Origin: an uncultured Mollicutes bacterium
GTDB taxonomy: Bacteria; Bacillota_I; Bacilli_A; RFN20; CAG-826
Direction: 5' to 3'
Assembly: GCA_900540365.1 (NCBI GenBank)
Contig: UQFN01000001.1
Coordinates: forward strand, 15,944 to 79,943
Length of the DNA: 64,000 bases
The stretch's first letter is position 1. Every line of letters begins with the position of its first letter. Positions 45,422 to 63,930 of this stretch are shown here, one piece after another. A program made the position numbers and the translations under genes. The notes under the pieces are model-generated. The model had not been told where the DNA came from, ran no database searches, and saw only the letters and a list, made by a program, of their open reading frames with translations.

Positions 45422-46445
45422 TACTTTTAACCCCATCCCATCTTTCATTATGTGAATCGTATCTCTCAATAAGGCTCAAATTAGAAATTCGATTTGTATG
45501 GCCTTTATTTACAGCTTCAAGATAATATTCTTTTTTTGAGGAAATTTTGTTGACTTTTCTTGAAACTGGAAACCATGATACACCACTTGTTTTGTATATT
45601 GGATGTACTTGTTTTGAATTAAAAGCACCTTTTTTAGATCTTCCGTTGATAAGCTGGAAGTCAGGAAATTTATTTATATAATTTTCGATCGAATCTAATA
45701 CCTTTTCGCTATCATCAGTAAGATAAATTGGTTTGAATCCTTGTTTAATATCAAAATAACTATAGGTCTTAAAATTTGAGATCAAATCATAATCAAATAG
45801 TGGACTTAAGATACCGTTTGGCAAACATTTTAAGTAAATAGTATTAAAAGAATCGCCTCTGTATAATTGAAATTTTTTACTATCATCTTTGTAGACAATA
45901 ACCAAAAAATATGTCAAAACAGGTAGTAATTGACCATTATTGAAACTAAACTCTTCAGGTAACAGTGTTTCCACTTTTATGCCAGAATTTTTAATATTTG
46001 GATCAGTATCTAAATTAATATTATGAAAAGATGACTGATTACTTTCAAACTGTAAATTATTAATGTCACCCTTGTTTCCTTTGTAATCCAATGTTTTTAC
46101 ATCAACATTAATAACAGCATCTTTAGTAATAAAAGCAATGTCAGAAGAAACTGGCGATGGATATACATTTAAAATAAAGTCGCTTAAATATCTATAGATA
46201 TAAAATCTTGTAAGTCTTTCGGCAGGTATTTTTATTTTGTTTTTTTCATCCCAAACTTTTGTTAGAAAATTGTAATTTTTTTGTATTTCCTTTTCGATCA
46301 GCTTTAAATCTTTTATAAAAGATGCTGATGTAAATAGCGAATAAAGAATGTCGAAATATTTCTTTTCAAGGTCTAATACTTTTTTCATTTTATCGACATT
46401 ATGTTTTTTTGGATCAATTTGATAAATTTTTTTCTGTGTACTCAT
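45402..46445 (-). CDS. putative Type II restriction endonuclease (cognate of the C5-MTase)
   Basis: 347-aa ORF convergent with the MTase and overlapping it by 20 nt. No family motif recognised. The assignment rests on the classic convergent R-M gene arrangement. Confidence 0.5.
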   Translation of the reverse strand: MSTQKKIYQIDPKKHNVDKMKKVLDLEKKYFDILYSLFTSASFIKDLKLIEKEIQKNYNFLTKVWDEKNKIKIPAERLTRFYIYRYLSDFILNVYPSPVSSDIAFITKDAVINVDVKTLDYKGNKGDINNLQFESNQSSFHNINLDTDPNIKNSGIKVETLLPEEFSFNNGQLLPVLTYFLVIVYKDDSKKFQLYRGDSFNTIYLKCLPNGILSPLFDYDLISNFKTYSYFDIKQGFKPIYLTDDSEKVLDSIENYINKFPDFQLINGRSKKGAFNSKQVHPIYKTSGVSWFPVSRKVNKISSKKEYYLEAVNKGHTNRISNLSLIERYDSHNERWDGVKSISLKDK

Positions 46446-46565
46446 TCTCTTATATTAATACTTTTGTAAAAAATAATAAACTTTGTAAAAAATTTTGATA
46501 ATTTTTATTGCACTTCACATTATTATTGACAGAAAATATCCTTCAAATTATATAAATTATAAAAA

Positions 46566-47210
46566 CTAAGCATTCCAGAACACTATACTTTTAATTTTTT
46601 TATAAATATCTTTATTATTATTTTTGTCCCATAAACCAAACATACTATTAAAACTTGTTAAAAGACATTTTTTGTTAAATAAAGGGTGATTAGAACATTT
46701 AGTAACAAACCTTTTAATCAATTTAAGATAGACATCTTTATCGTTAATAATTAAAGAATGGCATTTTAATCTCCATTTTTGATTTGCCTTCCAACCTGAA
46801 TATACATCATTCAGCTCTGGTACAATAAAATTTATTATTCCGCCAATTCCAACTATATCATATTTGTTTTTGTTTTTTGCTGGATACTCACATATTAAAA
46901 TATGTAAAAACAAATGTTCAAGATAGTCACAGTAAACAATATTTTCAGGTAATTGCCATTCATATGGATTTGCTAAAGCGTGTGTTTTGCTTCCTAACAT
47001 TATTGCATGATCTTCATATTTATGATGTGCTAGCAACCCATCACTAGTTCTTGAACATTTAGGATTACGATTACCATTTTTAAACATATATGCACTTCGT
47101 CCAATCCCGTACTTCTTTTGCAAATAGTTACAATATTCAAGATACGTATATCCTTTTACTTTGTTATATTCTCTCATGTTCATAATATCTTTTTCTTCGA
47201 ATAAACTCAT
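46566..47210 (-). CDS. hypothetical protein
   Basis: 214-aa ORF. Its first six codons (MSLFEE) and about 100 nt upstream duplicate the 3' end of the helicase pseudogene (see findings). Confidence 0.45.
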   Translation of the reverse strand: MSLFEEKDIMNMREYNKVKGYTYLEYCNYLQKKYGIGRSAYMFKNGNRNPKCSRTSDGLLAHHKYEDHAIMLGSKTHALANPYEWQLPENIVYCDYLEHLFLHILICEYPAKNKNKYDIVGIGGIINFIVPELNDVYSGWKANQKWRLKCHSLIINDKDVYLKLIKRFVTKCSNHPLFNKKCLLTSFNSMFGLWDKNNNKDIYKKIKSIVFWNA

Positions 47211-47575
47211 TTGATCAATTCTATTATCTTACTTCTATTTTTCCAATTATAAATTCATAACGTTTAGTCTAAAATTTATATTGTACTTAACGCAAATATC
47301 TCACATAAATCAAATGATGCTTTTATAACTAAGTTATATATCAGCATTAATTTAAAAATATCATAACTTATATTAAAAGCAAAATATAAGAATGTAAAAG
47401 TATTAGCATATCCGATTTCAGCATTGTCTCTTACATCTTTTATCACAAAAAAATAGTGAAATAGATAAGTTTTATCACATTTTATGAGCCAATCATTACA
47501 TTAAAAATATATTTTTAATTAAGCAAGTTCTATAAACTTTCATATATCTAATTAATATTTTATTCTTCAAATAAA

Positions 47576-50500
47576 CTCATTTGTTCGAATGCTTCATCTA
47601 AATTTTGTATTTTCCCGATTGTAAATTCAAATAAACCAATAATTGATTCATAATCTTTAACTGCACTATTAGGTATTCTAATTAATTTTATATTGTATTT
47701 AGCACAGATTTCTTCTTTTTTCTATCTCTAAGAGCAGTTTCTTTACTACCAACATGTTCACCACCATCAATTTCAAAAGCAACTATTGTTTTATATTGAC
47801 GATTAAATAAACCTCCACTAACTTGAACTATAACATCAAATTCTTTCATACCTATTTCTTTATGGTCAAAATAATTTACATTTTTAATAGCTTTTTCTAC
47901 AAGTACATTTCTTTCAATTCTAAATTTAGATCCTCGACGATTAAAATAAGGTTTAATAGTTTCAAAAAACTCCCTTTCGCTTTTTGAATCATTTGAAAAA
48001 TCATAATTAATAACTGCTTCACTTTGAGGAACACTAATTTCTCCGTTACCAAAAACATAATCTGAAAGAGCTTTAATATCATTAGTGTCGTTTTTACTTA
48101 AGGCATCAATTGCTTCTTTATCTCCAACAAAAATAAATTTATTTTTTGCTCTAGTAACTGCAACATTAATTAATTCATAATTATTTTTAATCCAACCCAT
48201 TGTTCTTTTTGCGGTTTTTAAAGATAAGGCTGAAGACATAATAATTACTGATTTTTCTTAACCTTGTAAGGTATGAACTGTACCAGCTTTAACATCTTCT
48301 ATTCCAAATTGTTCTAAATATTCATTAATTAAAGCTGCTTGGTTAACAAATGGAGTTATTATTCCAACATCCTTATAATTATTTTCTTTAATAATTTTTG
48401 CTATTTCATAAGCTTCTTCATTATAGGAATTCCTTAATTTAGCTTTAGATGTATTTTGAACATTTACATAAACTAAATCACCTAAATTTTCATTAAGTAA
48501 CTTAAGTTGTTTCTCATAAAATCTTTGATTAACAAAACTTGCAATTCTTTTACCGCATCGATAATGGTATCTTAATAAGATACATTTCGAATTATTATCT
48601 TTCTTTAACATTAAAGAAAGAATTGAATTTCTAACATAGTTATATTCTTTACTAATGTTATATTTATTCATTAAATCAAAATTAACATCATTTTCAATTA
48701 CGGTAACTGGTTGCAGTTGATTTGTATCTCCTACTAATAATAAATTTTCTCCTCTAACAATAGGAATTAATGAAGATGCAATATTGCATTGTCCTGCTTC
48801 ATCCATTATTACTAAATCAAAATGATTAGTTGCACTTCCTAACTTTTCTGAAGATAAATTAGTAGATAAAATAATAGGAAAAATAGACAAAAAACGTCTT
48901 AAATTCAAGTTATTTTTCAAAAATTTATTAAATTTAGAAACTGCAATATTCTCATCTTCAAGTGCAATAATTTCCCTTAATTCCTTAAAAGTTGGACCTA
49001 ATAATTTCTTATATCTTAAAATTGATGAGTAATATAAAAAATTGTGAAAATCTAAATCATCAAAGACTGATTTTGTACATTTAAATATATCTTTATCAGT
49101 AATATTTTTACTTGTGTTTAATTTATATTTATAAAGTTTAAGTTCAGATTCTAATTTCTCATTAATTTGATTAATTGATATAAAATCTTTTAATTTTCCA
49201 AGAGTATTGATACGCTCTTCTAAATCTAATTTATTTTCATATTCTATTAATAACTTTTTAAGTTCATTAAAGTTTGATAATGATTTATTTTTATTATCTT
49301 CAATTAGATTATCATATGTCTTTACATCTTGATTTTTTGATATATAAGTAAGTAATTCTTTTAACTTTTTAATCGTGTCAAGCATTTCAATATTATTTCC
49401 AATACGAATCATTGGAAAAATAATTTCTTGACTACTATTTTTAAATTTAAAAGACTCAATCATCTTTTTATAAATATCAATAACAGGATGATTGTTATTT
49501 GAACATACTAAAACTGTTTTATTATTTGCATAAGCAGATAATAAAACATTAAATATAGTTTCTGTTTTACCAGTTCCTGGTGGCCCTTTAACATAAGTAA
49601 TATGATTAACCATTGAGTTATAAACTACCCTAAGTTGATCAATATTTATTTTATTTTTATTAAATACAACAATATTTAAATCTTTATCTTTGTTATTTCT
49701 ACTTCTATTTCGACCAAAAAAAGCTTTCAAAGGTGTAGTTAATTTATTTTCTTCATCTAGTTTTTCAATAGATTCAATTGCATCACTTACACCATTTAAA
49801 CAATTTCGAAATAACAAAAATATTGATGGAGTCGTATCTATTCTTTCGTTATGATGAAAATTTTCTTTAATTAATTCTTTATATTCATTATATTTTTCAT
49901 CAAAGGTAGAACAAAAATCTTCAGAAGAAATTCCATCTAAATACATTCCTAAAGTAACTCTTTTTCTTTCAGAAATTAAAAAAGAATTATTAATAGAAGA
50001 TTTTTTGGCTACATGTAATGTTTTATCTAAAAAATTTAACTCTAATTCACGATATGCAATAACATATTGCTTTCCATCAATATCTATTGAAAGTTTATTT
50101 AAAGCAAGTGTAGCAAAGCGATTTTTTTGTTTAGCTTCTTCATAAGAAACTTTAAATACTTTATCTAATAAAATATTAAATTGATTATCATCTAATTGAT
50201 AATTAGAAGATTTAGAAAGTGTATAAAAATCAATATCATCAATTAAAGCTTTATCTTTAACGTAAGGGTCATTATCTAATCGATAACATTCTAATAAATA
50301 TTCTAAAATATTATTATCAAAATTAACTACATCAAAATAAGCATAAAACGCCTTATCATTTTTAATTTTAGTTTTAAGATTTATAGGAATTTCGTAGTAA
50401 CTATTTTCAATAATCCTAGCAGATTTAATTCCTGAAAATTTAATATAAGTGTCATTTCCTTTTTTTAAAAGATGGTCAGTTTTAAAAGGATTAAAAATAT

Positions 50501-50648
50501 CACAATAAATGATTTCTTTTTTAATATCTACTGCTTTTATTCCAATATAATAATTAGTAGACTCATTATTCCTGTTTAAATAAGAAACTGCGAGCCATTT
50601 ATTACTAATAATTGCTTGATATATTAAGTTCTTTATCGATAATTTCAT
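47576..50648 (-). pseudogene. Upf1-like (AAA_11/AAA_12) SF1 helicase with C-terminal DUF559 (Vsr-like) endonuclease domain, disrupted by in-frame TAA and a poly-A frameshift
   Basis: Helicase motif I (KGPPGTGKTET), motif II (VIMDEAGQ), and motif V (TVHTLQG) followed immediately by TAA at 48258-48260. The same frame resumes (EKSVIIMSS...VAVTRAKNKFIFVGD, motif VI). A DUF559-like domain follows (IVAFEIDGGEHV...RDRKK). It ends in the 47688 ORF, but a frame change in the A-run near 47712-47722 gives a native-looking tail (EEICAKYNIKLIRIP...EQMSLFEE*) ending at 47576. Confidence 0.7.
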
Positions 50649-50940
50649 GTTTAATTATATTTATTATAGTAATAATTACAAAAAAATCATAAATATAAAT
50701 CCTTTAATTTAAAATAAATTTAATTACTAATAATTCAGCATTGCATAATTCCTTTATTCCGTACACATTTTTAATTTTTTTATTTTTAACATCATTTTCT
50801 CTCTTACAATTAAAATATGTTTACAGTAACACCTTTACAGTTAGTTATCTTTTGGTAACTGTTGTTTTTTATTAATTCTATAATTTTCGCTAATGTTTCA
50901 ATATAAAATCCCAAGCTATATTAGCAATATATCATTATCA

Positions 50941-51010
50941 CTACTTTTTAATATTTAACGCAACTACACTCTCAATATGTGAAGTAATCCACGTGGACTA
51001 TAACCAAGCC
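50941..51010 (-). pseudogene. remnant of an rlmD 3' end (duplicate of the last ~20 codons of the rlmD gene at 60984)
   Basis: The minus-strand translation ...HVDYFTY / HIESVVALNIKK* parallels the rlmD C-terminus FVDMFPRTYHIESVVGLYLKK*. The 19-mer CAACTAC[A/G]CTCTCAATATG is shared by 50961-50979 and 61004-61022. Confidence 0.6.
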
Positions 51011-51030
51011 TAACCTAGAGGCTATCAAAT

Positions 51031-51990
51031 TTATTTCTTCATTTCCACTAAAGGAATGTTGTTTTCATTGCAATACTTGCGAATGGCTTCTTTATTTTCG
51101 ACTGAAGCGTCAACTCCTAAGATGATCTTTTTGATCTTTGGCGCAGGAGTTCTAGTGTTTGCGTCTCCTAAAATTCGCCACTCGTTTTGATACTCCCACT
51201 GCTTGTATTTAGTTATAAACAGTCTTAAATATTGAGAAGTGTCTGGCTTTATTTGATGGCTCGACATGCCGAATACCATTTGTCCTATGAAATTAGCCAC
51301 TATAGACATCACAATGTTCGTTTCTCTTTCGTCTTGATAAATTACAGGAAACAATATGTTTGGTGTCTTAAAATCGCTAAAATCATATTCGACGCAATAT
51401 CCACTATTCTTGCCAGCATAGTTCTCCCACATGTATTCATTATCAGCATCCTCACAAAGTGAACAAATACCCATTTTTTGTCTTGCTTCATAAGCTCCAA
51501 GAATTAATGTTTTTATTTGTTCATTCATTCCAGGTTCATCAAGCTTCTGAGGAATATTGACCAAGTAATTAACGATGGGAGCTGTGTTAGCACCAGGGAC
51601 TAGCTCATCTATTTCTGGTTGAATATCCAAAAGATGATTTGGTCTAACGGTTCCGTTTCTATTTAGAATCTGACTAATCAACAGCTGTATTTGCTCAAAG
51701 TTCTCTTTGCTTGTATAAGGCCTAATAAATTCCATTATTTGAAAAACACACTGTCTCTTTAGTCCATCTTTCTCTAAGTCATACAAGTTTTGCATATTGA
51801 GGGATGTCATACATTCAGTAGGATCATCCAACTTCTCAGCAACGCATAAGAAAAGATATTTGTTTTCAAACATGTCGAATGTGTGTTCATCAAACGGTCT
51901 ATATTTGAAAAGAGACGCAGGCCCTTTATAAGACGCATCTCTATTCATCAAAATATAGTTAATATAATAAAGCCTTTCGTTATGGTTCAT
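51031..51990 (-). CDS. DUF2971-family protein
   Basis: The N-terminal signature (SLFKYRPF...ENKYLFLCVAEKLDDPTECM) is consistent with DUF2971 (LYKYRSF...fNDPfE). 319 aa, immediately downstream of hsdR. Confidence 0.5.
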   Translation of the reverse strand: MNHNERLYYINYILMNRDASYKGPASLFKYRPFDEHTFDMFENKYLFLCVAEKLDDPTECMTSLNMQNLYDLEKDGLKRQCVFQIMEFIRPYTSKENFEQIQLLISQILNRNGTVRPNHLLDIQPEIDELVPGANTAPIVNYLVNIPQKLDEPGMNEQIKTLILGAYEARQKMGICSLCEDADNEYMWENYAGKNSGYCVEYDFSDFKTPNILFPVIYQDERETNIVMSIVANFIGQMVFGMSSHQIKPDTSQYLRLFITKYKQWEYQNEWRILGDANTRTPAPKIKKIILGVDASVENKEAIRKYCNENNIPLVEMKK

Positions 51991-52001
51991 AAATCATACT
52001 A

Positions 52002-55000
52002 TTAAGCTTTAATTTTCTTTTCTTTCCATATTTCTAACAAAACCCAGTGTAAGCAGTCGTTTCTAAAATCAAAATCAGCTATTTTTGTAACAAATGAGTA
52101 AACATTAGGGTTGTTAGTAAGAACCTTATAAACGTTGCATTTGTTATCCATACAATTCATGAAAATGATTTTTTCAAATTCATCAAAGGTTTGACAATAG
52201 GCAAGAACATTTATGCAGAAAGAATTATTCAATAAGAATTCCATAAATTCTTTAAAGATTGGTTCTGTCGGAGATAATCCAAGGTTTTCGTTGAATACCT
52301 TCACAGCCTCTTCTAAAGTACTTGTTTCAGGTTTTTTTGAAGTTGGTTTTCTATTTGCACCACTTGAACCAGTCATCTCTTTACCATCGCCATATTCCGG
52401 ATCGCTGATTGATTCATTCTTAGTAATGCAAATGTTAGTAAATTTTACCAACTCACTCAAATCCTTTATCGACAAAACATTTGTTCTTAACTTAATGCAA
52501 GCAAGAAGATAGGAATAGAACACGTCTTTATCCCTTAATCTCCTGTCATTAAGTATTGTTTTTTGTATACAAATATCATACATACGGACAAAGTTACGAA
52601 TTACCCATAGTTTGTCTTTTTTATACTTTTGCTGTTCTATCAAATCCTTAGAGAATGCTTTAGCATCGTTTTCAAATTTAATTCTAATTCTGGCTACAAT
52701 TTGTGTTAATGCCAAATAGGCAGAATCATCTTTTTTGTAAGAAGCAGATTGTAGATAAACTGCGCCTGCATGAATTTCTTCTTCTGTTGCGAGTCTTAAT
52801 GCATCAAGATTCTTTTCAAGCTTGTAGATATCGTCAAAATCATCTTTTCTGTAATATTTGGCGTCAACATAGAAAGTGTTAAATGCGTCCAGAATATCGT
52901 TGTATTCATTAACAAAATCTAAAACAAATGTTCGTTTTTCAGGATATTCAGGACACACCCTATTTAATCTCGATAATGTTTGGACAGCCTTGACTCCTTT
53001 GAGTGGAGTATCAACAAGCATCATAGATAAATATTGCTCATCAAAACCAGTAGTATACTTATCAGCAACTACTAAGAATTTATATTCTTTATTCTTGTGG
53101 AAAACTTCTTCAAGCGGATCGGTCAAATTGTTAAAGTCGTTTTCTTCATATTTAATGCCTTTAATCTCTAAAACATCTGAATAAGCAATTAAAGCTTTAT
53201 AAGAGAGACCATTGTCCGCGAAATACTTATTCAAAGCAATATAGTACTTCAATGCAGCTTCTCTTCTTCCGGTCACAATCATTGCTTTCAAATTACCATC
53301 CAAGTCATTTACGCGAGAATAGAAGAATCCCATGAAAATATTGACCTTTTTCTCAATGATTTTCTCATCCAACAAAGTTGCATCGGTAAGAGTTTTATTG
53401 GTTTTATCCAAATCAACTAATAGGTCTTGTTCTTTAATACATTGTGCTTTGCAATATAGAGAATAAGTGTTGTAATTCTTAAGAACATCTAGAATGAATC
53501 CTTCATCGATGGCTTGTTTCATTGTATATGAGAAGAAAGGCTTGTATTCTTTTCTTCCTTGTTCGTCCAAAACTGGTTGTCCATTTTCATCCACAACAAC
53601 ATCACCAAATATTTCTCTGGTTTCCTTTTTAGGCGTTGCTGTAAATGCTATGAAGGTGACGTTCTTCAATCTACCTTCAACTTTATCCATTCTGTCATTG
53701 ATAAGATCTGCGATTTGCTCTGAGGTAAATTCTTTATCTTTTAGATAATCGTTTAACGATTCCTTATCGTCTATCGAGAATGAAGTTTTAATATCATTCA
53801 TGTATTGACCGGATGTAGAGTCATGTCCTTCGTCAATTAAAACAGCAAACTTTTTATTTTTCGTTGAAGAAATACCATCAACGGCATCAGGGAATTTTTG
53901 CATGTTAGCAACAATTATGCGGTCTCCGGAGTTAATGGAACTCTTTAATTTTGCTGAACTAGTTGGTTTAACTACAAAGCCAGTTTGATGATCAATTTTA
54001 TTCATTGCTTGATCCAACTGTTTATTAATTACTAATCTGTTAGAAACAATAATCACGCTGTCAAAAATAGGTTTATTGTTACAGTTGTTTAAGTAAGCAA
54101 GTTTGTAAGCGGTCCACACAATCATGAATGTTTTGCCTGAACCAGCTGCAGCTGCTATTAAATAATTCTTTAAATCGTCTTTTGTAAATTTATCTAAAAC
54201 ATCTTCAATTATATTGTTTGTACATTTAAATTGATGATAACGAGGAAAGATCATTGAATCTTTTTCGCCAAAAATGAAGTTTTGAATAAGATTAGAAATA
54301 CCTTCCTTGGTCATTATTTCTTCCCAGAAGTATTCGACTGGATAATGTGGGTACTCAGTATCAGGATTTCCGGCACCACCATCATTGCCCTGGTTAAATG
54401 GCAAGAAATCAGCATCTTTTGACAGATTGGCGCACATCGATATATGAAGTCTGTCCATCGCAAATGAACATATGATGTGTCTGAAATAAGCAGATGTATG
54501 ATCTCTATCATTCTTTAATTGATATTCAGCATCTTGATACGTTTGAGTAGTTCCGTTTTTTATTTCCACTGCAAAAAGATGCAGACCATTAACGCCAATA
54601 GAAACATCAATGCGATCACTAGTACCTAAATAATTTAGTTCTTTCACGACAAAAAAGCGGTTCTTTTTGTAACGTTCATACTCTTCGGGATTAATTGTAT
54701 TGTTAGGCTTAGTGTAAAAAATGAAGAGCTGTTCTTTTGCACAACCGGCTGGTTGAATGTAAATACCTTTGACTAAAGCTTTAATTATTCCGTCTTTAGA
54801 CAATGCTTCGTATATTAAACTTAATAAATCGCTTTCTGAGCATTCTCTTAATAGCTTTTCTGTGACTTTTGGTTGAGTATCTTTGAGAAACTCAAAGAGT
54901 AAGTTTTTATCCAAGGCATAGGTTGATATGTAATTCGCGCCAACATTGCCGAGCGAATCTTTAAGCTTTTCATATACTATTCTTTTTTCAAATGACATTT

Positions 55001-55043
55001 CGTTAGGCATTGGTATCCATCCCCTTTCCGTGTATTCGTTCAT
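52002..55043 (-). CDS. hsdR: Type I restriction enzyme R subunit (HsdR)
   Basis: 1013 aa. Walker A (AAAGSGKTFM), DEAH-like motif II (VLIDEGHDS), helicase motifs in the C-terminal RecA domain, and an N-terminal HsdR_N nuclease region. Its start region overlaps hsdS. Confidence 0.85.
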   Translation of the reverse strand: MNEYTERGWIPMPNEMSFEKRIVYEKLKDSLGNVGANYISTYALDKNLLFEFLKDTQPKVTEKLLRECSESDLLSLIYEALSKDGIIKALVKGIYIQPAGCAKEQLFIFYTKPNNTINPEEYERYKKNRFFVVKELNYLGTSDRIDVSIGVNGLHLFAVEIKNGTTQTYQDAEYQLKNDRDHTSAYFRHIICSFAMDRLHISMCANLSKDADFLPFNQGNDGGAGNPDTEYPHYPVEYFWEEIMTKEGISNLIQNFIFGEKDSMIFPRYHQFKCTNNIIEDVLDKFTKDDLKNYLIAAAAGSGKTFMIVWTAYKLAYLNNCNNKPIFDSVIIVSNRLVINKQLDQAMNKIDHQTGFVVKPTSSAKLKSSINSGDRIIVANMQKFPDAVDGISSTKNKKFAVLIDEGHDSTSGQYMNDIKTSFSIDDKESLNDYLKDKEFTSEQIADLINDRMDKVEGRLKNVTFIAFTATPKKETREIFGDVVVDENGQPVLDEQGRKEYKPFFSYTMKQAIDEGFILDVLKNYNTYSLYCKAQCIKEQDLLVDLDKTNKTLTDATLLDEKIIEKKVNIFMGFFYSRVNDLDGNLKAMIVTGRREAALKYYIALNKYFADNGLSYKALIAYSDVLEIKGIKYEENDFNNLTDPLEEVFHKNKEYKFLVVADKYTTGFDEQYLSMMLVDTPLKGVKAVQTLSRLNRVCPEYPEKRTFVLDFVNEYNDILDAFNTFYVDAKYYRKDDFDDIYKLEKNLDALRLATEEEIHAGAVYLQSASYKKDDSAYLALTQIVARIRIKFENDAKAFSKDLIEQQKYKKDKLWVIRNFVRMYDICIQKTILNDRRLRDKDVFYSYLLACIKLRTNVLSIKDLSELVKFTNICITKNESISDPEYGDGKEMTGSSGANRKPTSKKPETSTLEEAVKVFNENLGLSPTEPIFKEFMEFLLNNSFCINVLAYCQTFDEFEKIIFMNCMDNKCNVYKVLTNNPNVYSFVTKIADFDFRNDCLHWVLLEIWKEKKIKA

Positions 55044-56247
55044 AAATAATAGATTTTTTAAATTGTTTTAATTTCTCTATTTTTTCAGTTTTAAGTTTAA
55101 TCAACGAATTAATTACCGCTACTTTTTTATCCAAATAATTAACGATTTCTTTTTGCTCAGCAATTGGAGGGAGAGGAAATTGAAAATTCCCGAATTGTTC
55201 TTGATAGAGGTGTATAATTGTACTTTGTCCCCTTTGATTATAATCAAACCACTCCCAAAAAATATTACTTGAAAGGCAATAAAACAAGTATTTATTAATG
55301 TATTTACCTGACTCGTTTCTAATCAACATAATTCCACTATTAAGAGATGTTTTATAAGGCAAACCTTGAACAATAGCAACTTTGCCAACAGTGCCGTCTT
55401 TTGTTATTAAGAGATCGTTTTCTTTAATCTGAATCTGATAAGCTTCTTTGTATCTTGCCTCAGTAATATGAGTGCATGTGTCCCAATTGATTGTTCCATC
55501 TAAAAAATCAGTCCCAGTTATTAAAAATGGCCCTTCATCCTTGTACTCTTCAGCCTTTAATCCTTGCCATCCAATTCTTCCTTTAAGATAGCAATGATGT
55601 TTTATTTTTGCTAGCTCCCAATCTATAGGTAATTCACCTATAAAATGGTTTTTCGTTTTTTTCTTTTTCGACTTTCTGAGTCCATTTTTGCAAAGCTCAG
55701 AAATGAGGCTGTATCTATAGGCTCTCAATTTTTCGATTTCTTGTTCTTCAAAAGAGAGGGAGTCATTAATTTTGCTAATTGAGTTATTCAGTTCGTTGAC
55801 AATCTTTATTTGTTCCTCGTTGGAACGTGTAGGTATGTAAAAATTCTTTATATCATTTGTCGAAATATTAGGCTGTGCGGATCCCATCGAAGTAAGCCTA
55901 ACAAAATCTAAAAACATATCATCTAATAGGCAATATTTCAAATACTCTGGTCTTACGCAGCGCGGCCTTATAATACCAACTCGCTGGTTAATACAAGCCG
56001 GTTTATCATCGTCAAAAAGTCCGCTTTTTCCAACGGTGGCGCCACTAAGAGCAACAAGAACATCATTTCTTTTAACGGTATATGGTGACAATCTAGGATC
56101 AAATTGAACACCATAGCATTTTTGAATATCTATTTTTTCATCGACGTCTGTAATTCTAATCACAGGAAAAGGATTCGAATAATCAAAACTGATTGGTTTA
56201 AAAGCAAAACCATTTATTAAATCTGCTATGTATTTAATTCTAATCAT
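55003..56247 (-). CDS. hsdS: Type I RM specificity subunit (HsdS), two target-recognition domains
   Basis: Two TRDs separated by a coiled-coil conserved region. Conserved blocks: ALSGATVGKSG, GSAQPNISTNDIKNF, LPPIAEQKEIV. It overlaps hsdM by 8 nt. Confidence 0.85.
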   Translation of the reverse strand: MIRIKYIADLINGFAFKPISFDYSNPFPVIRITDVDEKIDIQKCYGVQFDPRLSPYTVKRNDVLVALSGATVGKSGLFDDDKPACINQRVGIIRPRCVRPEYLKYCLLDDMFLDFVRLTSMGSAQPNISTNDIKNFYIPTRSNEEQIKIVNELNNSISKINDSLSFEEQEIEKLRAYRYSLISELCKNGLRKSKKKKTKNHFIGELPIDWELAKIKHHCYLKGRIGWQGLKAEEYKDEGPFLITGTDFLDGTINWDTCTHITEARYKEAYQIQIKENDLLITKDGTVGKVAIVQGLPYKTSLNSGIMLIRNESGKYINKYLFYCLSSNIFWEWFDYNQRGQSTIIHLYQEQFGNFQFPLPPIAEQKEIVNYLDKKVAVINSLIKLKTEKIEKLKQFKKSIIYERIHGKGMDTNA

Positions 56248-58243
56248 TGAATAATTCCTCGATCAGGCCCTTTTCTTTGCTGATTATATTTTTCAAATCC
56301 GCCAAAACCGCTGACGAAGATATTGGTTCTTTATACTTATAAAAAAACTTATTGAAATTTATCTCGCACCCAACCTTAGTAACATAGTCATCTGTAAACC
56401 AGGCATCAAGCAAATAAGGTTTAACATTTTCTTCAAAATAAGCATCAACAGATTTGCTATACTCAACAAATTCGCTATCGTTTAATTCAGAATCTGGTTT
56501 CAAACCTGTTTTGGTTTTTTTATCTGGATAAGTCTTTGAAGTGTTATCTTTTTCTGAAAAAGCCATCGCAATTGCTTTGATGTATTTGTCTTGCAGGGAA
56601 GGGAAAATGTTTTTAATAATTCTAACGAAAGCATTCATGTCATCATATACGATTTCATTAAAATTGTTATTCAAGGTGGTCAATATTTGGTCTTGTAATA
56701 CTTTCCCATCTTTTAATTTTCTAATTTTTTCCAGGTTTTCTAATGTAGCTTCTTTATTAAGTAAATCTTCAAGCTCTTCCTCATCAAAAAGCGAAGAAAA
56801 CGCATTCTGAGAATAAAGATTATCAATACGCTCTCTACACAATTTAAAATTCCTTCTAAATGGTTGTTGAATCGTTACTTCATAATAGTAGAACTCTTCT
56901 TTTTTTACATATTTGACTAATTCTGAAGGCTTATTAACATCAAATTTTGAATAAAGATTAACTATATTTTCAATGTCTTCAGAAGTCATTTCTTTTCTTT
57001 TATAACCAATTCCTTTTTTAAGATTGTGAAAAAAAGATGAAGCATCAATAATTTGTATCCACCCTTTTCTCTTTTGAGATTTGCCGTTTTTACTTATAAC
57101 CCAAGCATAAATTGATATACCAGTATCAATGAAGCCTTGATCAGGCAACTTTATAATAGCTTCAACATAGTCTCTGTCTAATAACCATTTTCTGATTTTG
57201 CTTTCTCCTGATAATGTTGCACCACTAAACAATGGTGATCCGTTTGAAAGTAATGCTGCTCTGCCTTTATCTTTCAATTTTCTTATTGCGGCCTTCCAAA
57301 ATAGCATTTGATTGTCCGTTGATGTAGGAAGATCGTCGCCAAGCAAATTTTTAATAGTATCTTCGTCTGCTTTTTTTCTACCGCAGCCATAAGGAGCGTT
57401 CTGAAGGACATAATCAAAATCGTCGTTTGGAAATGGATCTTCTTTCAATGTATCTGCAACAACGAAGTTCTCTGCCTTTTGACCAATCATAAGTTGTTCA
57501 GCCTTACAAATTGCAATACTTAAATCACTATTATCCTGGCCATACACAACAACATTGTTCATCGGGTTCATTGCCGTTACAGTTTTTTCAAAATGGCTTG
57601 TTAGCTGTCCAGAGCCAACACAATTATCTAGTAGCGTAACATAATTGAATCCATTTTTTAGATGTTCGCACCCTTCAGCAAGCAAAAGCTTGGTTAGTAA
57701 TTCGACAAAATCCGATGGAGTCCAGTTTTGACCATTTTCTACTGTGCCATAAACCATGCAAATCAATTGGCCGAATAGTTTTCCCATCTCTGTATTATCC
57801 ATAACGCCTAAATCAAGCGCATCAAACTTCTTAAGAACGCCATAAAGAGTTCCTTTGTCATCTAACGCCTTTGCTGTTTTAACGAGGTCCAACCCTTTTT
57901 CACCGAAAATAAAGGTAACGTTATCTGAAAAGCCTTCGATCATTTTCTTGGTGTTGGAATAGTATTTTTGTGGATCGGAGAGCAAATCATGGAATGTCAT
58001 TTTGCAGACGTTGTAATATCCATGCCCAGATTCAGAAAGAAGTTTTTGCTTATCAATTGTGCCTTCTTTTTTCATTTTTGCATATGCTTTATCAACCGCT
58101 TCTTGTGTATCTTTAAGAAGGCCCATCAATCTTTTTAAGATTGTAAAGCCTAAAATTGTGTCACGATAGTAATCTTGCATGCTATCTTTACGCAAAATAT
58201 CTTGAACACTCTTTATATCGTTAAAATAATTTCTTGTATCCAT
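56240..58243 (-). CDS. hsdM: Type I RM N6-adenine DNA methyltransferase (HsdM)
   Basis: 667 aa. N-terminal HsdM_N domain, motif I (LDNCVGSGQL), motif IV (NAPYG), then a C-terminal helical region. Confidence 0.85.
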   Translation of the reverse strand: MDTRNYFNDIKSVQDILRKDSMQDYYRDTILGFTILKRLMGLLKDTQEAVDKAYAKMKKEGTIDKQKLLSESGHGYYNVCKMTFHDLLSDPQKYYSNTKKMIEGFSDNVTFIFGEKGLDLVKTAKALDDKGTLYGVLKKFDALDLGVMDNTEMGKLFGQLICMVYGTVENGQNWTPSDFVELLTKLLLAEGCEHLKNGFNYVTLLDNCVGSGQLTSHFEKTVTAMNPMNNVVVYGQDNSDLSIAICKAEQLMIGQKAENFVVADTLKEDPFPNDDFDYVLQNAPYGCGRKKADEDTIKNLLGDDLPTSTDNQMLFWKAAIRKLKDKGRAALLSNGSPLFSGATLSGESKIRKWLLDRDYVEAIIKLPDQGFIDTGISIYAWVISKNGKSQKRKGWIQIIDASSFFHNLKKGIGYKRKEMTSEDIENIVNLYSKFDVNKPSELVKYVKKEEFYYYEVTIQQPFRRNFKLCRERIDNLYSQNAFSSLFDEEELEDLLNKEATLENLEKIRKLKDGKVLQDQILTTLNNNFNEIVYDDMNAFVRIIKNIFPSLQDKYIKAIAMAFSEKDNTSKTYPDKKTKTGLKPDSELNDSEFVEYSKSVDAYFEENVKPYLLDAWFTDDYVTKVGCEINFNKFFYKYKEPISSSAVLADLKNIISKEKGLIEELFND

Positions 58244-58329
58244 CTCTTTTGATTCTCCATTCCAATCCCGGGAATCTAAACTTACTTAATTATATCGAAA
58301 TTTAAATTAGTAATCTATCCAAACTATAG

Positions 58330-58881
58330 CTAATAAGTTAGGCATTCTTTAATAAAATTTGTATTTTCTAAACACCTTTCAAAAGCAGATTGCGATAAGG
58401 TTAACACTCCATTTGAATCAGTCATTCTGTGTACCTTAGGGTAATCAGCTGGATTATTTTCGACAGCTGCTAAGAAGCTCGAATTATCTCCAATGCCAAC
58501 ACCTTTATGGTGGACAGGACCAACTATAATGTCACTATAAGCACTGGTGCTGGCTAAGCGGCTGTAATCAAAGTTCGGCTTTACTGCCTGGAATTCGATT
58601 CTATCTGGAGGTATTCCGTATTTCTTTTTGGCTCTTAGTTTCCGATCATTAACATTTGGCAACTCGATAGCTAAGACAAGAATATTGGCCTTTCTAGCGT
58701 TATTTAGATAGAAGTCACAATATGGTTCTGATTCTTGTAACAAATCGATGATGCCATACTGCTCAGCAACTTTTTCTAATTCGCCTGCTGCATTTCCACG
58801 CATTATGGCTAATTGAATTTTGTTAAGGGCTGTATTTAGAAAGTCTTGTAATGATTCTGGTCCTAAAGTCACACTATTCAC
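58330..58881 (-). CDS. hypothetical protein overlapping the 3' end of the HsdM-HsdS fusion gene
   Basis: 183-aa ORF. Its start overlaps the upstream MTase stop by 8 nt, which suggests translational coupling. No motif recognised. Confidence 0.4.
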   Translation of the reverse strand: MNSVTLGPESLQDFLNTALNKIQLAIMRGNAAGELEKVAEQYGIIDLLQESEPYCDFYLNNARKANILVLAIELPNVNDRKLRAKKKYGIPPDRIEFQAVKPNFDYSRLASTSAYSDIIVGPVHHKGVGIGDNSSFLAAVENNPADYPKVHRMTDSNGVLTLSQSAFERCLENTNFIKECLTY

Positions 58882-60664
58882 CTTCTTCCTTATCCCAAAG
58901 GTTATCTAGCATTTTGTTCGCTTTAGACTCTAGGGATTTAAGCCTTTCTTTTTCTGATCTAATTAAATCTCTTAAATCCATATACTCTGAACCAATTCTA
59001 ACTTGGCGATCATAAAGTAAACCTGGAACCGGAATCTTTTTGACGTTATTGATTGATAAGTTAGGAATAATATTGCCGGTTTGATACATTTCCAATACTT
59101 GTCTGCCTAAATCTGACTCAAAATAAGCAACCAGGTAATATGGATCCAGTTTCTTTTTTTTTGGCCTAATGACCATGATGCTTCCGGCTGCAACAATTGG
59201 CTCATCAGTATTTAAATCAACCACCGCAGATTTAACTCTTAATGATTTAGTAGAGATAACAACATCACCTTTTTGAACTTTAAACTTATCAATTGTGTTT
59301 TCTGGGATGTCATATCTTTCTAATTTAGACACAATTGAACCATTTTCAACGTTACTCATTTGAAGCAAACGAGTACCCGTTCCATCTGTTTTATGAATAG
59401 ATTCTAATTTTGCAGAAGGCACTTGCCATCCGGTAAATATATCCGCTAATTCTATTAATTCAGTGGCATTTGGCATTGTTTTTTCAATCTTTTTAAAGTA
59501 AATAGCTGGTGATAATGAATAATCATGCTTGGCAATTTCTTCAGGTGTAAATAAGCATTCACCACTATCGAAAGACTTGCTAAATTCCATAAACAATTCG
59601 TGCGCATTTACACTATTGATTTTTCTATTTTCTTTTTTGAAATATGCTGAACCATCAAACAAGGCAACACGTTCATTCTTTGTGTCTGACAACACTACCA
59701 TTGCTGTACCAATGTTTGTTCTAGTAAAGATATTTGTTGGCAGGGTAATAACGGCTTTAACAAAACCGCAACGGAGCATGTGATCTCTAACTCTCTTGTC
59801 AGCTAAATTGGAAAGAATAGATAGAGGAACAACGGAAATTGCTACACCATCATCTCTATCTAAATAATTCATCATGGCTGATAAGAAGAAATAATCAGAT
59901 GTATCGCCCTGGTTAAGTAAGAATCTGTTAGCGTTGCAATTAAACATTATTTCTCTTTGTCTTGAGTCCTTAACAATGAGTTTTCATGGGAATTCAGAAA
60001 ATACGAGGTTTGAACCAACTCGTGCAGTTTGATGATGCCAGCTATCCTCAAAGCAATTGATATTTCTGACACGGCCTTCAATTTCGTTAGCGTGTAGACG
60101 CATGTTTGCAATAATCGAATTACTAATATTAATTTCAACACCTTCGATGTGTGGGTACTCTTTTGCGGCCTTTAATAAGAAGGAACCCTCTCCACAAGTC
60201 ATGTCAGTGACATTAATTTTTTGCTTTAAGAATTTATTAGCTAATAATAATACTAAATCACTAAGACTATCAGGTGTCGATTCGTCATGAATTGAGTTAC
60301 TAAATGAATAATTAAGCATAGCTAACAATTCGTCTTTAGTGAAATTTGATAATTCTAAACTGATTGCTAAAGGATCGAAACGATATCCCAAACCTTGATT
60401 AGCATAAACCTCTTGAGGTCCGACTTTTGCCGCTTCAACCAACTCTTTCACACTTTTATACGTGTAGCTAGTATCTTCTTCTGTTAAAGCTTTGACCAAT
60501 TTACAGGCTGCATCATCTACGTCGCCTGTTGGGTAATTGTTAAACTTTTCTAAATAAAGATAGTAGGTAAATGCCAACGCCTTTGCAGTATATTCCACCA
60601 AGGAAGCAGGCATGTACATCTTTAAGTTGTTAGTAAATTTCCAAATTTTGTTTTCTAATTCCAC
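58874..60664 (-). pseudogene. gamma-class N6-adenine MTase (HsdM-like N-domain + motif I) fused to a single HsdS-like TRD, interrupted by in-frame TGA
   Basis: The N-terminal ORF (60664-59984) has an HsdM_N-like region and motif I (DMTCGEGSFL), and ends ...VFSEFP-TGA (59984-59986). The same frame continues KLIVKDSRQREIMFNCNANRF... into ORF 59947-58874, whose C-terminal 200 aa is an HsdS-like TRD with a conserved tail (NLSINNVKKIPVPG, RQVRIGSEYMDL...). Confidence 0.65.
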
Positions 60665-60983
60665 GATTGAATCCTCCTTTAATCTTAGCCCAGATTACTT
60701 TTGACAATACCATGATATCCTGCCGATAATACCATGTCAATAAAAAATTAATCTTTGCTTAGATTAGTTTTAATGTTCTACTAGTAGAAAAGTTTTTAAA
60801 ACCTGAAGAATGATCTGCACCCCGTTATGTACATTTTATATCCGTGATTAACACCACTTACAACGTAGGACACAGGCTATCTTTTGTATAATTAATTAAT
60901 ACATTTTGCATTAAGTAAAAGTGGTATTCGTGAGATATAACTCTCTTCAAATTATGACCTTTTTTATTAAAAATGAATGGTTT

Positions 60984-62324
60984 TTACTTCTTGAGATACA
61001 ATCCAACTACGCTCTCAATATGATATGTCCTAGGAAACATATCAACAAAATTAATTGATTTAATATCATAATATTTCTTTAATATAAATAAGTCTCTAGC
61101 TAAAGTTGATACATCACAAGAAATATAAATAATCTTTTTAGGAGCAGATTTAATTAAAGCATTAATAAATTTTTCATCTAATCCTTTTCTAGGAGGATCA
61201 ACAAAAACTACATCAAATTTATTATTAAAAACAAAATCACTAGCATCTAAACAATAAAATTTAACATTATTAATATTATTTAATTTAGCATTTAATTTAG
61301 CATCATTTATTGCTTCTTTAACAATTTCAACTCCAACAACTTCTTTAACTTTATTAGCTAATGTTAATCCAATAGTACCTATTCCACAATAAGCATCTAA
61401 TATAACATCATTACTAGTTAAATTAGCTTCTTTTGAAGCTAATTTATATAAAACTTCACATTGATCATGATTTACTTGATAAAAAGATTTTGAAGATATT
61501 CTAAATTTAATTCCTAGTAAAACATCTTCAATATATCCTTTTCCGTATATAACTTCTTCTTTATCTCCTAAAATTACATTAGTTTTTCTTTCGTTTATAT
61601 TAAGTACAATTGTTGTTAACATTGGACAAGCTTTAACTAAAGCTTTTGATAAAATATTTTTAGATTTAAATCTTGAAGTAGTAACAACTAAAGTTAACAT
61701 TACTTCTTTAGTTACTTTTCCTACTCGAATTAAAGCATGTCTAACAATACCTTCTTCTTTATCTTCATCATAAGCTTTAATTTTTAATTCTTTTAATAAT
61801 CTAGCTAAATTTTTTAAGATGACTTCATGAACTTCATCTTCAATCATACATTTACTAATTGGAACAATATCATGGGATTTTATTTTATAAAATCCATATA
61901 CTAAACGATGTTGTTTATCATATCCAAAAGGAACTTGAATTTTATTACGATAAAAATAAGGCGTTTCCATTTTAAAAAGCGGAACATCTTTAATATTTAA
62001 TTTACCTATTGAATTTAAAATATTAATTGCTGTTTTCTTTTTATATTCAAGTTCTTTTTGATAATCTAAATTTTGGAAGGAGCATCCTCCACAACTAGTA
62101 GCACATTTACATAAAGGATTAATTCGATATGGAGAAAATTTAGTTATTTTTTTAATTTTTCCTACATCAAAATTTTTCTTACGATATAAGATTTCTACTT
62201 CAGCTTCTTCATCAATTAATAAAGATGGAACAAAAATAACACGATTATTTGCTTTACATAATCCTTGTCCATCAAAAGTAAAATCAACACATTTTACATT
62301 AATAACTTCATTATTTTTGTTCAT
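60984..62324 (-). CDS. rlmD: 23S rRNA (uracil-5-)-methyltransferase RlmD/RumA family (TRAM + Fe-S + SAM MTase)
   Basis: N-terminal TRAM domain and a Cys cluster (C...CxxC...C: CKCATSCGGCSFQN). C-terminal MTase motifs (VLDAYCGIGTIGL, FVDPPRKG) and catalytic region (YISCDVSTLARD). Confidence 0.8.
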   Translation of the reverse strand: MNKNNEVINVKCVDFTFDGQGLCKANNRVIFVPSLLIDEEAEVEILYRKKNFDVGKIKKITKFSPYRINPLCKCATSCGGCSFQNLDYQKELEYKKKTAINILNSIGKLNIKDVPLFKMETPYFYRNKIQVPFGYDKQHRLVYGFYKIKSHDIVPISKCMIEDEVHEVILKNLARLLKELKIKAYDEDKEEGIVRHALIRVGKVTKEVMLTLVVTTSRFKSKNILSKALVKACPMLTTIVLNINERKTNVILGDKEEVIYGKGYIEDVLLGIKFRISSKSFYQVNHDQCEVLYKLASKEANLTSNDVILDAYCGIGTIGLTLANKVKEVVGVEIVKEAINDAKLNAKLNNINNVKFYCLDASDFVFNNKFDVVFVDPPRKGLDEKFINALIKSAPKKIIYISCDVSTLARDLFILKKYYDIKSINFVDMFPRTYHIESVVGLYLKK

Positions 62325-62346: not shown

Positions 62347-63930
62347 TTATCTAGGTTTTACAAGGTTTTTAACATAATTAACGTCGTTTTCATCAAGACG
62401 AGGGAATAAAGCTTCGCCTTTATTAACCTTTTTATTATCTAATAAATGAGTATTTAACATATTATTATAATCTCTTAAAGAATCAGTAATTCCTAAAAAA
62501 TCAAATATACGATTTGCTTTATTAACTAAAATTGGTCTTAACATAATTGCAGCATTAAATATAACATAAGTTAAATGAGACATAACTGCTTTTAATTCTT
62601 CAAGTTTAGAATTATCTTTAGCTAAACTCCAAGGAGCAGTTTCTTCAATATATTTATTTGCTCTTCCAAGTAAATTCATTACATCAATATAAGCTTCAGT
62701 TATTTTTAAATCATCCATTTTTTCTTCAAAAGATTTTTTAGTAGAAATAACTAAATCTTCTAATTCCTTATCTAAAGGTGTAACACTAATAAATGAAGGA
62801 ATTATTCCATCAAAATATTTAATAATCATTGAAATAGATCTATTAACTAAATTACCTAAATTATTTGCTAAATCTAAATTTATTCTTTCAATAAATTGTT
62901 CTGGAGTAAATTGTCCATCTTGTCCAAAAACAATTTCACGAGCAAAGTAATATCTAACCGCATCCACTCCATATTTTTCAACAAGTGGATAAGGTGAAAT
63001 AACATTACCTTTAGATTTAGACATTTTTCCATCTTTAGTCATCAATAATCCATGAACAAATACTTTATCTGGAAGTCTTAAATGAAGTGCACTTAAAAAT
63101 TCAGGCCAATAAATTGTATGGAATCTAGTAATATCAGCTCCAATTACATGGATAATTTCACATTCCTCACTTTCCCAAAACTTTTTATATAAAGAATCAT
63201 CTTCACTTCTATAACCTAAAGCACTTAAATAATTAAATAATGCATCAAGCCAAACATAAGCAACATGTTTTTTATTTTCTAAAATTGGTATACCCCAATC
63301 AAAAGAAGTTCTACTTACACAAAGATCTTCAAGTCCAGGTTTAATAAAGTTATTTAACATCTCACTTTTTTTAGATGGAGGATAAATTGAATCTTCTTTA
63401 TTAAAAAAACTCATTAATGGCTCTAAATATTTATTTGTTTTAAAAAAGTAACAAGATTCAGTTTGTCTTTCTACAGGACGATTACAATCAGGACATAAGT
63501 GTTCTTCTCCTACTTGTGTATCAGTCCAAAATGATTCACAAGGTGTACAATACCATCCTTCATATTCACCTAAATAAACATCATCATTTTTAATAAAATC
63601 ACTAAAAACACTTTGAACTACTTTAATATGTCTTTCATCGGTAGTACGAATAAAATCGTCATTGGTAATTTCAAGTAATCTCCATAAATCTTTGAATTTA
63701 TCGACAATTTCATCAATATAAACTTTAGTGTCTTTATTTGCTAACTTCGCATTTTTTTGTATTTTTTGACCGTGTTCATCAGTACCTGTTAAAAAATAAC
63801 ATTCAAAATGTCTCTCTCTTTTATAACGAGCAAATATATCGCACATTGTAGTGCAATAAGCATGTCCTATATGGGCGTTTCCACTAGGATAATAAATAGG
63901 GGTTGTAATATAAAATCTTTTCTTTTCCAT
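62347..63930 (-). CDS. metG: methionyl-tRNA synthetase (short, Mollicutes/Firmicutes type)
   Basis: Class I HIGH motif (PSGNAHIGHAY), zinc knuckle (CPDCNRPV), KMSKS motif (KDGKMSKSKGN). 527 aa. Confidence 0.9.
   Translation of the reverse strand: MEKKRFYITTPIYYPSGNAHIGHAYCTTMCDIFARYKRERHFECYFLTGTDEHGQKIQKNAKLANKDTKVYIDEIVDKFKDLWRLLEITNDDFIRTTDERHIKVVQSVFSDFIKNDDVYLGEYEGWYCTPCESFWTDTQVGEEHLCPDCNRPVERQTESCYFFKTNKYLEPLMSFFNKEDSIYPPSKKSEMLNNFIKPGLEDLCVSRTSFDWGIPILENKKHVAYVWLDALFNYLSALGYRSEDDSLYKKFWESEECEIIHVIGADITRFHTIYWPEFLSALHLRLPDKVFVHGLLMTKDGKMSKSKGNVISPYPLVEKYGVDAVRYYFAREIVFGQDGQFTPEQFIERINLDLANNLGNLVNRSISMIIKYFDGIIPSFISVTPLDKELEDLVISTKKSFEEKMDDLKITEAYIDVMNLLGRANKYIEETAPWSLAKDNSKLEELKAVMSHLTYVIFNAAIMLRPILVNKANRIFDFLGITDSLRDYNNMLNTHLLDNKKVNKGEALFPRLDENDVNYVKNLVKPR

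Follow-up and report, generated by a model that had tools for sequence, protein, structure and literature searches.

Alternative rlmD 3′ ends bracket a restriction-modification island in an uncultured gut member of the Bacillota

A Type I restriction-modification island lies between two rlmD tails

The gene rlmD (also called rumA) is a documented hot spot for the insertion of ICEs (integrative and conjugative elements) and prophages in Firmicutes (PMC4701971, PMC5633684, PMC12785378, PMC8714194, PMC13651849, PMC9680904). Here we describe an island of about 10 kb, called island A, that lies between two different versions of the rlmD 3′ end in a 64,000-nucleotide stretch of DNA from an uncultured Mollicutes bacterium (GenBank assembly GCA_900540365.1, contig UQFN01000001.1, positions 15,944 to 79,943), hereafter the window. 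All of the genes concerned, both rlmD and those of island A, are carried on the minus strand. The rlmD gene (60984-62324) encodes a 23S rRNA m5U1939 methyltransferase of 446 amino acids (Pfam tRNA_U5-meth_tr) whose C-terminal end, directly before the stop codon, reads ...FPRTYHIESVVGLYLKK, and metG (62347-63930) lies upstream of it. Island A itself (50980-60983) fills the space between the end of this gene and a second, displaced rlmD tail.

Read in the direction of transcription, island A opens with a non-coding left arm of 131 nt (60853-60983) and, at the start of the island module, a conserved block of 41-48 nt (GTTAATCACGGATATAAAATGTACATAA...; 60806-60853). This block recurs with 87-93% identity downstream of rlmD in one of the related contigs (L008 11601-11648; contigs carrying rlmD loci are denoted here by L numbers) and in inverted orientation in another (L110 1542-1581). 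It is thus found at the edges of related islands in three genomes, once inverted, and has no Rfam match. The first gene is a pseudogene for an N6-adenine methylase fused to a specificity domain (58874-60664), whose two pieces (59984-60664 and 58874-59947) carry the Pfam domains N6_Mtase and Methylase_S and are separated by an in-frame TGA at 59984-59986. When read through, the product is 90% identical to an intact 579-residue protein of L107 that has Trp at the position of the TGA. Read-through under genetic code 4 was considered and rejected, because in ATGA overlaps of this host TGA serves as a stop. Given the Trp of the intact homolog, the TGA is treated as a nonsense mutation, and probably a recent one.

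The remaining cargo begins with an open reading frame (ORF) of 183 codons (58330-58881) that has no Pfam or PADLOC match. Unannotated ORFs of 173-182 codons also lie beside the fusion methylase in the related islands of L087 and L107, and of those two only the L107 ORF falls within the region that aligns with the window. Next come the genes for the methylase, specificity and restriction/helicase subunits of a Type I restriction-modification (RM) system: hsdM (56240-58243; Pfam HsdM_N and N6_Mtase), hsdS (55003-56247; two stretches of Methylase_S) and hsdR (52002-55043; HSDR_N, ResIII, SWI2_SNF2 and a T1R_D3-like domain). With hsdR, hsdM and hsdS together, the cargo includes a predicted Type I RM system, which looks intact beside the fusion pseudogene. 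The last gene (51031-51990) encodes a DUF2971 protein (Pfam, 8e-9) that is recognized by PADLOC as the candidate defense gene PDC-S31 (2e-34). The island then ends in a right arm (50980-51030) that finishes with ...GTCCACGTGGATTACTTCA directly before the core of the displaced tail. An initial annotation made from the window alone had listed this same set of genes, and the Pfam assignments agree with it.

The composition of island A differs from that of its surroundings. Its G+C fraction is 0.34 at 50980-60853, compared with 0.23 at 46500-50940 and 0.25 in rlmD plus metG; the genome as a whole is given as 23-26%. The change is abrupt at the right-hand repeat and more gradual at the left. The composition of island A is thus foreign, and the island was probably acquired horizontally.

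When all six frames of 50600-61100 were scanned with Pfam, the 96 stop-to-stop segments of 35 residues or more yielded 21 families, among which there is no recombinase, transposase, phage or conjugation remnant, in agreement with the earlier statement that no integrase is present. Terminal inverted repeats are likewise lacking, as the best arm-to-arm alignment scores below the mean of shuffled sequences. The possibility that a tRNA or other RNA gene served as the integration target was rejected, since the window contains no tRNA or tmRNA gene and the region from 40 to 64 kb gives no Rfam match at E≤1. Promoter and terminator scans at both junctions returned nothing above chance.

The two rlmD tails form a direct repeat that is in frame with the gene. 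The proximal copy, designated attL-like with reference to the attachment (att) sites of integrating elements, is the tail of the current gene, HIESVVGLYLKK with its stop codon (60984-61022, minus strand). The distal or attR-like copy (50941-50979, minus strand) reads HIESVVALNIKK followed by a stop in the same frame, and is now non-coding, with stops and unrelated sequence immediately upstream. A repeat search of the window aligns 50942-50979 with 60985-61022 as an ungapped direct repeat of 38 nt (79%); extended to 50941-50979 and 60984-61022, with the stop codons aligned, 30 of 39 positions are identical. Similarity breaks off at 50979/61022, which is the His codon of a conserved H-I/V-E-S/T motif.

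Within the repeat, a core 19-mer is common to both copies at 18 of 19 positions (CATATTGAGAG[C/T]GTAGTTG on the sense strand; 61004-61022 in the proximal copy), as the initial annotation had reported. Searching with this 19-mer (CAACTACRCTCTCAATATG) gives exactly two matches in the window, even with up to three mismatches permitted, where 0.03 would be expected, and none of 100 shuffled sequences gave two.

Island-free strains end rlmD with the displaced tail

By its RlmD homologs, the host is an uncultured gut bacterium of low G+C that belongs to the Bacilli. Comparison with contigs of the same species, Candidatus Onthovivens sp. (the name of one member of the 90% RlmD cluster), identifies the source of the displaced tail. 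The remnant matches the functional rlmD end of L098-L103 at 38 of 39 positions and that of L104 at 37 of 39. This is far beyond chance, and the remnant is thus a bona fide rlmD tail, which bears out the claim that a displaced rlmD 3′ end lies about 10 kb from the real stop. The initial annotation had given the remnant as 50941-51010. Only 50941-50979 is rlmD tail, and 50980-51010 is island sequence.

The similarity continues beyond the tail. Specifically, in L098, L099 and L100 the intact rlmD gene ends with the remnant's sequence and runs on into the remnant's flank, which corresponds to 50810-50940 of the window (minus strand) and is the sequence that follows the rlmD stop in island-free strains. 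In L098 and L100 the rlmD stop is followed by 135 nt that are homologous to those adjoining the remnant on its downstream side, and L098 11303-11476 aligns with window 50979-50810 at 81.7% over 175 nt, tail included. Judging from these alignments, the configuration of the three contigs is the empty site. The proposal that a segment was integrated at the 3′ end of a conserved gene is thereby supported, and neither of the two findings that the initial annotation named as refuting it applies: relatives with an unoccupied site do exist, and the repeat is a genuine gene end rather than a chance resemblance.

The proximal tail has a different history from the gene that carries it. Whereas the body of rlmD is 96.8-97.9% identical in DNA to its counterparts in the conspecific contigs, its final 39 nt share merely 25-31 positions with L003, L098 and L104. 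L003 follows the window at about 97% identity as far as the base preceding the His codon; past this point 14 of 39 nt differ in the tail, and the downstream DNA is unrelated to the window. The proximal tail and the left arm are instead found together in L106, where positions 1-2259 match window 63111-60853 at 97.6% before diverging into a different island.

Residues of the two tails, ALNIKK in the resident type and GLYLKK in the type shared with L106, serve to name the alleles. The first 19 nt of the attL-like copy are identical to the resident ALNIKK-type allele, and from nucleotide 20 onward, together with the 131 nt beyond, this copy matches the GLYLKK-type allele of L106. By this comparison, the body of rlmD is native and its last 20-27 nt are of the incoming type, and the attL of the window is a hybrid with a resident-type start and an L106-type remainder. 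The distal copy differs from the resident alleles solely at position 12, and the core of L106 differs from that of the window at positions 11 and 15. The pattern of these single-nucleotide polymorphisms (SNPs) in attL, attR and L106 would place the exchange in GTAGTTG, with position ~12-15 and position 20 as its limits.

One part of the initial annotation, which had described a target duplication, does not survive these comparisons. A different but homologous tail (GLYLKK) seems to have come with the incoming DNA, which displaced the resident one (ALNIKK). Such provision of a new tail and displacement of the old one is typical of att-site recombination at gene 3′ ends.

The end of rlmD varies widely even within this species. 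In the conspecific RlmD cluster (proteins P0001 and P0241-P0252), 12 full-length members display at least nine different variants of the last 12 residues, in genes that are otherwise ~97-98% identical in DNA; P0243 and P0248 end in HIESVVALNIKK, the sequence of the remnant. Evidently RlmD tolerates almost any tail after the H-I/V-E-S/T motif, to judge by these alleles. The DNA that follows varies as well, since six conspecific contigs carry six different gene sets after rlmD. The arrangement seen in the window is found in an independent assembly and in other samples.

Two observations on the wider set of contigs may be added. In the conspecific contig L104, the ALNIKK tail is followed (12820-21167) by another Type I system, different from that of island A, in which several fragments of hsdS accompany a tyrosine recombinase of 266 residues, a layout that looks like that of a phase-variable hsdS shufflon. 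Among the species-representative contigs L007-L086, about 25 of 80 end within 500 nt downstream of rlmD. This fits assembly breaks at a strain-variable region, a weak indication, since short contigs are numerous in this set.

The same junction recurs in other Bacillota

The closest homolog of the DUF2971 gene (95% identical) is found in L087/L088, from a different species. There, an island with a fusion methylase, a 173-codon ORF, hsdM, hsdS, hsdR and the DUF2971 gene lies directly downstream of rlmD, and L087 9999-11019 matches window 51992-50972 at 93%. In both L087 and the window, the right arm ...GTCCACGTGG[A/G]TTA[C/T]TTCA joins CATATTGA at the identical nucleotide. After this junction, each island is followed by the tail typical of its own host. 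In L087 this tail is HIETVALLERK, identical at the protein level to the rlmD tail of L010, from the same species group.

Distal tail remnants that start at the same His codon were also recognized in L010 (52 nt, with 50 of 52 positions identical), L013, L031, L054 and L073. L054 and L073 are Clostridia-type loci, and L031 has three remnants in tandem, hence three tandem cassettes. Across two Bacillota classes, the remnants in seven independent cassettes thus have this codon as their start. The cargo of these cassettes includes C5 methylases, NOV_C nuclease-like proteins, an AAA_14 ATPase, Fic, an HTH-nucleotidyltransferase, a protease and a GGDEF protein, and no recombinase is encoded in the bracketed cassettes of L010, L013, L031, L054 and L073.

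Conserved arms accompany this variable cargo. In L031, the left arms of the cassettes are alike (80% over 169 nt, tail included), as are the right arms (83% over 105 nt), despite the different genes between them. Moreover, seven copies of a left-arm motif, TGTAAAAGYRCRA, are present among 110 loci, each on the rlmD strand and at a distance of 10-140 nt past an rlmD tail, at positions that include L008 11347, L013 11358, L016 11343, L031 4513 and 9628, and L087 273. This motif may be a left-arm recombination or regulatory site of a cassette family; it is absent from the window. About 100 nt of conserved sequence accompany it in L008, L016 and L087.

The initial annotation had left open whether the element was degraded or acquired by recombination. 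This wording proves too general: the same junction recurs across species and cassettes, which indicates a defined recombination site.

A second defense stack separates the remnant from the native neighbor of rlmD

The remnant is an internal boundary rather than the far edge of the inserted DNA. A MazG-like gene (43492-43836, minus strand) is the native downstream neighbor of rlmD in related species. Its homologs, 63-70% identical, begin approximately 10-46 nt after rlmD in L019 and L017, and others are found 0.6 kb after rlmD in L022 and 1.5 kb after it in L015. Because a MazG-like gene follows rlmD in these four related species, about 17 kb appear to have been inserted here. The gene at ~50.6 kb is not the native neighbor of rlmD.

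An older inserted stack, with about 7 kb of defense genes identified by Pfam and PADLOC (43967-50648), separates the remnant from the MazG-like gene. It comprises an Mko-like AAA_11/AAA_12 helicase split between a 796-codon ORF (48258-50648, minus strand) and a 183-codon ORF (47688-48239, minus strand), a 214-codon ORF, an MwoI-like (MwoI_N-like) endonuclease gene (45402-46445, minus strand) and an HTH-C5 cytosine methylase gene (43967-45421, plus strand). The 183-codon ORF bears the AAA_12 end, and the helicase gene is probably a pseudogene. The HTH-C5 methylase and endonuclease genes converge with an overlap of 20 nt in a region of 29% G+C; together (43967-46445) they look like a Type II RM pair, which was probably a separate acquisition. 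No third tail remnant is present at the far end of this older module (43837-43966) or elsewhere in the window, and apart from the 38-nt repeat the non-coding arms of this module show no similarity to those of island A.

Beyond the stack, at 41231-43836 on the minus strand, the MazG-like gene overlaps (ATGA) a gene for a Schlafen-group-3-like helicase, which is followed by a NERD-domain ORF. Of the genes of this region, the MazG-like gene alone is kept beside rlmD in relatives, and the helicase and NERD genes may represent a further defense insertion.

Site-specific integration is the favored explanation

We consider it likely that island A is a non-autonomous or decayed island that entered by att-type site-specific integration, as part of a tandem accretion resembling that of cis-mobilizable elements (CIMEs). 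According to this proposal, island A would have entered by recombination at a site whose start is the His codon, which precedes the rlmD stop by 12 codons. It would have brought its own rlmD-like tail (GLYLKK) and a left arm, so that rlmD stayed whole but acquired a different C-terminus; the resident tail (ALNIKK) and the DNA downstream of it would have been displaced by about 10 kb to the far end. The crossover most likely took place within the 19-nt core and probably in GTAGTTG, as would be expected for an att site of the tyrosine-recombinase type with a short overlap. Because no recombinase is present, the island would be either a non-autonomous cassette moved by a recombinase that is encoded elsewhere, or a decayed element that, like a CIME, has kept its att sites. 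Repeated use of the site could then have stacked at least two modules and yielded a strain-variable defense hot spot.

The proposal makes two explicit predictions. The junction of an excised circle should consist of the right arm ...GTCCACGTGGATTACTTCA, the core CATATTGAGAG[C/T]GTAGTTG and GATTGTATCTCAAGAAGTAAAAACC..., and the restored empty site should consist of the rlmD body followed by ...GTAGTTGCGTTAAATATTAAAAAGTAG.

We infer that the recombination was site-specific rather than homologous, that the crossover occurred at the position given above, and that the enzyme was supplied in trans. The invariant junction, the host-specific displaced tails, the conserved arms around variable cargo and the tandem stacking together argue for recombination at a defined site, in preference to illegitimate or purely homologous insertion. 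In addition, the in-frame segment of 38-57 nt that restores the gene resembles the att sites of tyrosine integrases at gene 3′ ends.

Several results weigh against this interpretation. No recombinase was found within the island or anywhere in the 64-kb window, nor, for most of the ~190 loci, in the 10 kb around rlmD. A regular-expression scan for tyrosine and serine recombinase motifs, applied to the window and all loci, found no match near the islands in question, and the Pfam survey of 114 downstream ORFs of relatives covers the 25 most frequent families. The enzyme is therefore hypothetical. No related ICE or integrative and mobilizable element (IME), or other autonomous partner, was found among the ~190 loci, even though the tandem stacking in the window and in L031 is consistent with accretion. 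Nor was an excised circle or attP junction recovered, as the exact right-arm junction pattern has no hits in IMG/VR and JGI metagenome contigs; a search of IMG/VR for rlmD relatives gave one distant locus with phage genes and no informative junction.

The pairing of tails with cargo is also imperfect. The ALNIKK tail precedes three different contents, the GLYLKK tail with its 131 nt precedes two, and L087 and L008 have a common left arm with different tails, such that the idea of a proximal tail that always travels with its cargo is only partly true. Since tails are not strictly tied to cargo, homologous recombination must also reshuffle the region. The proposed position of the crossover depends on three SNPs. 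The close similarity to L087 is limited to the last 1 kb, and the fusion methylases of the two islands are just 25% identical.

Among the alternatives, homologous recombination alone is the most serious, even if we judge it unlikely. In this scenario, a block of tail, island and tail would have been imported through RecA, or a circle would have integrated in Campbell fashion, with the repeats serving as portable homology. The region is clearly mosaic, with tails, arms and cargo reassorted among conspecific strains, and the lack of a recombinase fits such a process. The core offers 19 nt of identity, and the finding of the identical configuration in other samples also speaks for it. Against this, the right arm joins the tail at the same nucleotide in two species whose tails are alike over only ~8-11 nt, which is too short for efficient RecA exchange, and the remnants of seven independent cassettes in two Bacillota classes all start at one codon. 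Furthermore, the cassettes keep conserved arms on both sides of variable cargo, and a replacement between flanks would not in itself create a duplicated tail.

It is very unlikely that island A is what remains of an ICE or prophage that targeted rumA/rlmD through a large serine integrase and later lost its integrase together with its conjugation or phage genes. Single serine integrases, both of ICEs from streptococci and clostridia and of prophages, are certainly known to target the gene (PMC4701971, PMC5633684, PMC12785378), and L097 has phage genes adjoining rlmD. A Clostridia contig, L170, even holds an RM island with a serine recombinase fused to the rlmD tail (3405-12188). In L170, RlmD is normal to ...HVETVVLLSRE and continues into ~95 foreign residues, and beside it lie a large serine recombinase gene (Resolvase plus Recombinase domains) and Type III-like RM genes. 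This junction falls ~9 codons past the His codon and extends the protein, unlike that of island A. In the rumA elements with a serine integrase, the repeats measure 2-21 bp, attR falls within the integrase gene and insertion alters the reading frame of RumA; for streptococcal ICEs of the tyrosine-integrase type, direct repeats of 12-54 bp are reported (PMC4701971). The repeats considered here are 38-57 nt long, in frame, and encode a homologous tail. No serine recombinase domain (Resolvase or Recombinase) is among the families of the six-frame scan, which also lacks phage and conjugation remnants, and at least seven cassettes would each have had to lose everything except their cargo. The last alternative, that transposition left a target-site duplication of unusual length or that the pattern is an artifact of chance or assembly, is effectively refuted. 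Direct repeats do flank the insert, and the two copies in L010 are nearly identical (50/52). Yet there is neither a transposase nor a pair of terminal inverted repeats, and the arrangement reappears in an independent assembly. The copies in the window disagree at 9 of 39 positions and correspond to separate natural alleles, one each, which rules out a duplication made on insertion.

A bolder extension of site-specific integration, to which we assign rather little credence, is that the rlmD-tail repeats define an undescribed class of integrase-less cassettes, each with a replacement tail followed by cargo between conserved left and right arms, that are captured and stacked at the rlmD 3′ end by a recombinase encoded elsewhere. 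If this were true, the enzyme would come from the host or from an unlinked element, and the system would be common to uncultured gut Bacilli and some Clostridia. The rlmD end would then be a store of defense and toxin gene cassettes whose logic is nearer to that of pdif modules or integron cassettes than to that of decayed ICEs.

Implications

The locus offers a nucleotide-resolved example of the delivery of defense genes to a small genome of an uncultured gut bacterium (Candidatus Onthovivens). The end of rlmD serves as an address at which islands are swapped and stacked, and the variable tail of RlmD keeps a record of past insertions. In practical terms, tail remnants can be used to delimit islands in metagenome assemblies, which often appear to break at the end of rlmD. 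Beyond the initial annotation, the analysis adds the empty site, the stacked architecture, the junction shared across species, the hypervariable RlmD tail and the pseudogenized methylase. Integrase-less cassettes with conserved arms in several Bacillota point to a recombinase that acts in trans.

Comparison with known systems

Arrays of islands separated by repeats of the gene end at which they inserted are known from the ssrA locus of Dehalococcoides, where each island has its own recombinase. A report on this system describes genomic islands in tandem at the ssrA 3′ end and thus, as with island A, integration at the end of a single-copy conserved gene (PMC3146451). In Dehalococcoides the target is an RNA gene, whereas here it encodes a protein.

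Modules that lack a recombinase and are moved by host enzymes are represented by the integrative mobile elements exploiting Xer (IMEX) and by pdif modules, and defense islands are known to accumulate at hot spots between core genes. The rlmD cassettes have in common with these systems the strain-variable stacks of defense genes at one address, the short conserved bounding sites and the lack of a recombinase of their own. They differ from pdif modules and IMEX in that the bounding repeat is part of a coding sequence and is not known to be dif-like in function or dependent on Xer.

The serine-integrase ICEs and prophages of rumA/rlmD, such as ICESag37 (PMC5633684) and the Erysipelothrix prophage phiEr670 (PMC12785378), share with island A the 3′ region of rlmD as target, a recognized hot spot in Firmicutes, and the alteration of the RlmD C-terminus by insertion. 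These elements, however, span 20-70 kb and include transfer or phage modules, while the rlmD cassettes carry an in-frame tail mimic of 38-57 nt, no integrase and a cargo of 1-10 kb. Because the junction in the window lies earlier, is in frame and comes with a tail mimic, we do not place island A among the serine-integrase rumA elements.

Closest in kind are the CIMEs and the tandem accretion at a conserved gene 3′ end that have been described for the islands related to ICESt1 and ICESt3 of Streptococcus thermophilus (PMC5704250). Like a CIME, island A keeps attL and attR without genes for integration or transfer, and in both cases elements that carry adaptive genes are stacked in tandem at one site (PMC5704250). 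The differences are that a cognate ICE or IME sharing its att site was not identified for island A, that the repeats of the window are imperfect (79%), that several of the rlmD cassettes are tiny, with one to three genes, and that they occur in uncultured gut Bacilli of low G+C and in some Clostridia. There is documented precedent for integration at gene 3′ ends, for rlmD/rumA as a hot spot and for integrase-less islands flanked by att sites; these established concepts stand unchanged. The kind of event is classical; what is new, within the att-flanked integrase-less islands, is the host group and the type of att site at a known hot-spot gene.

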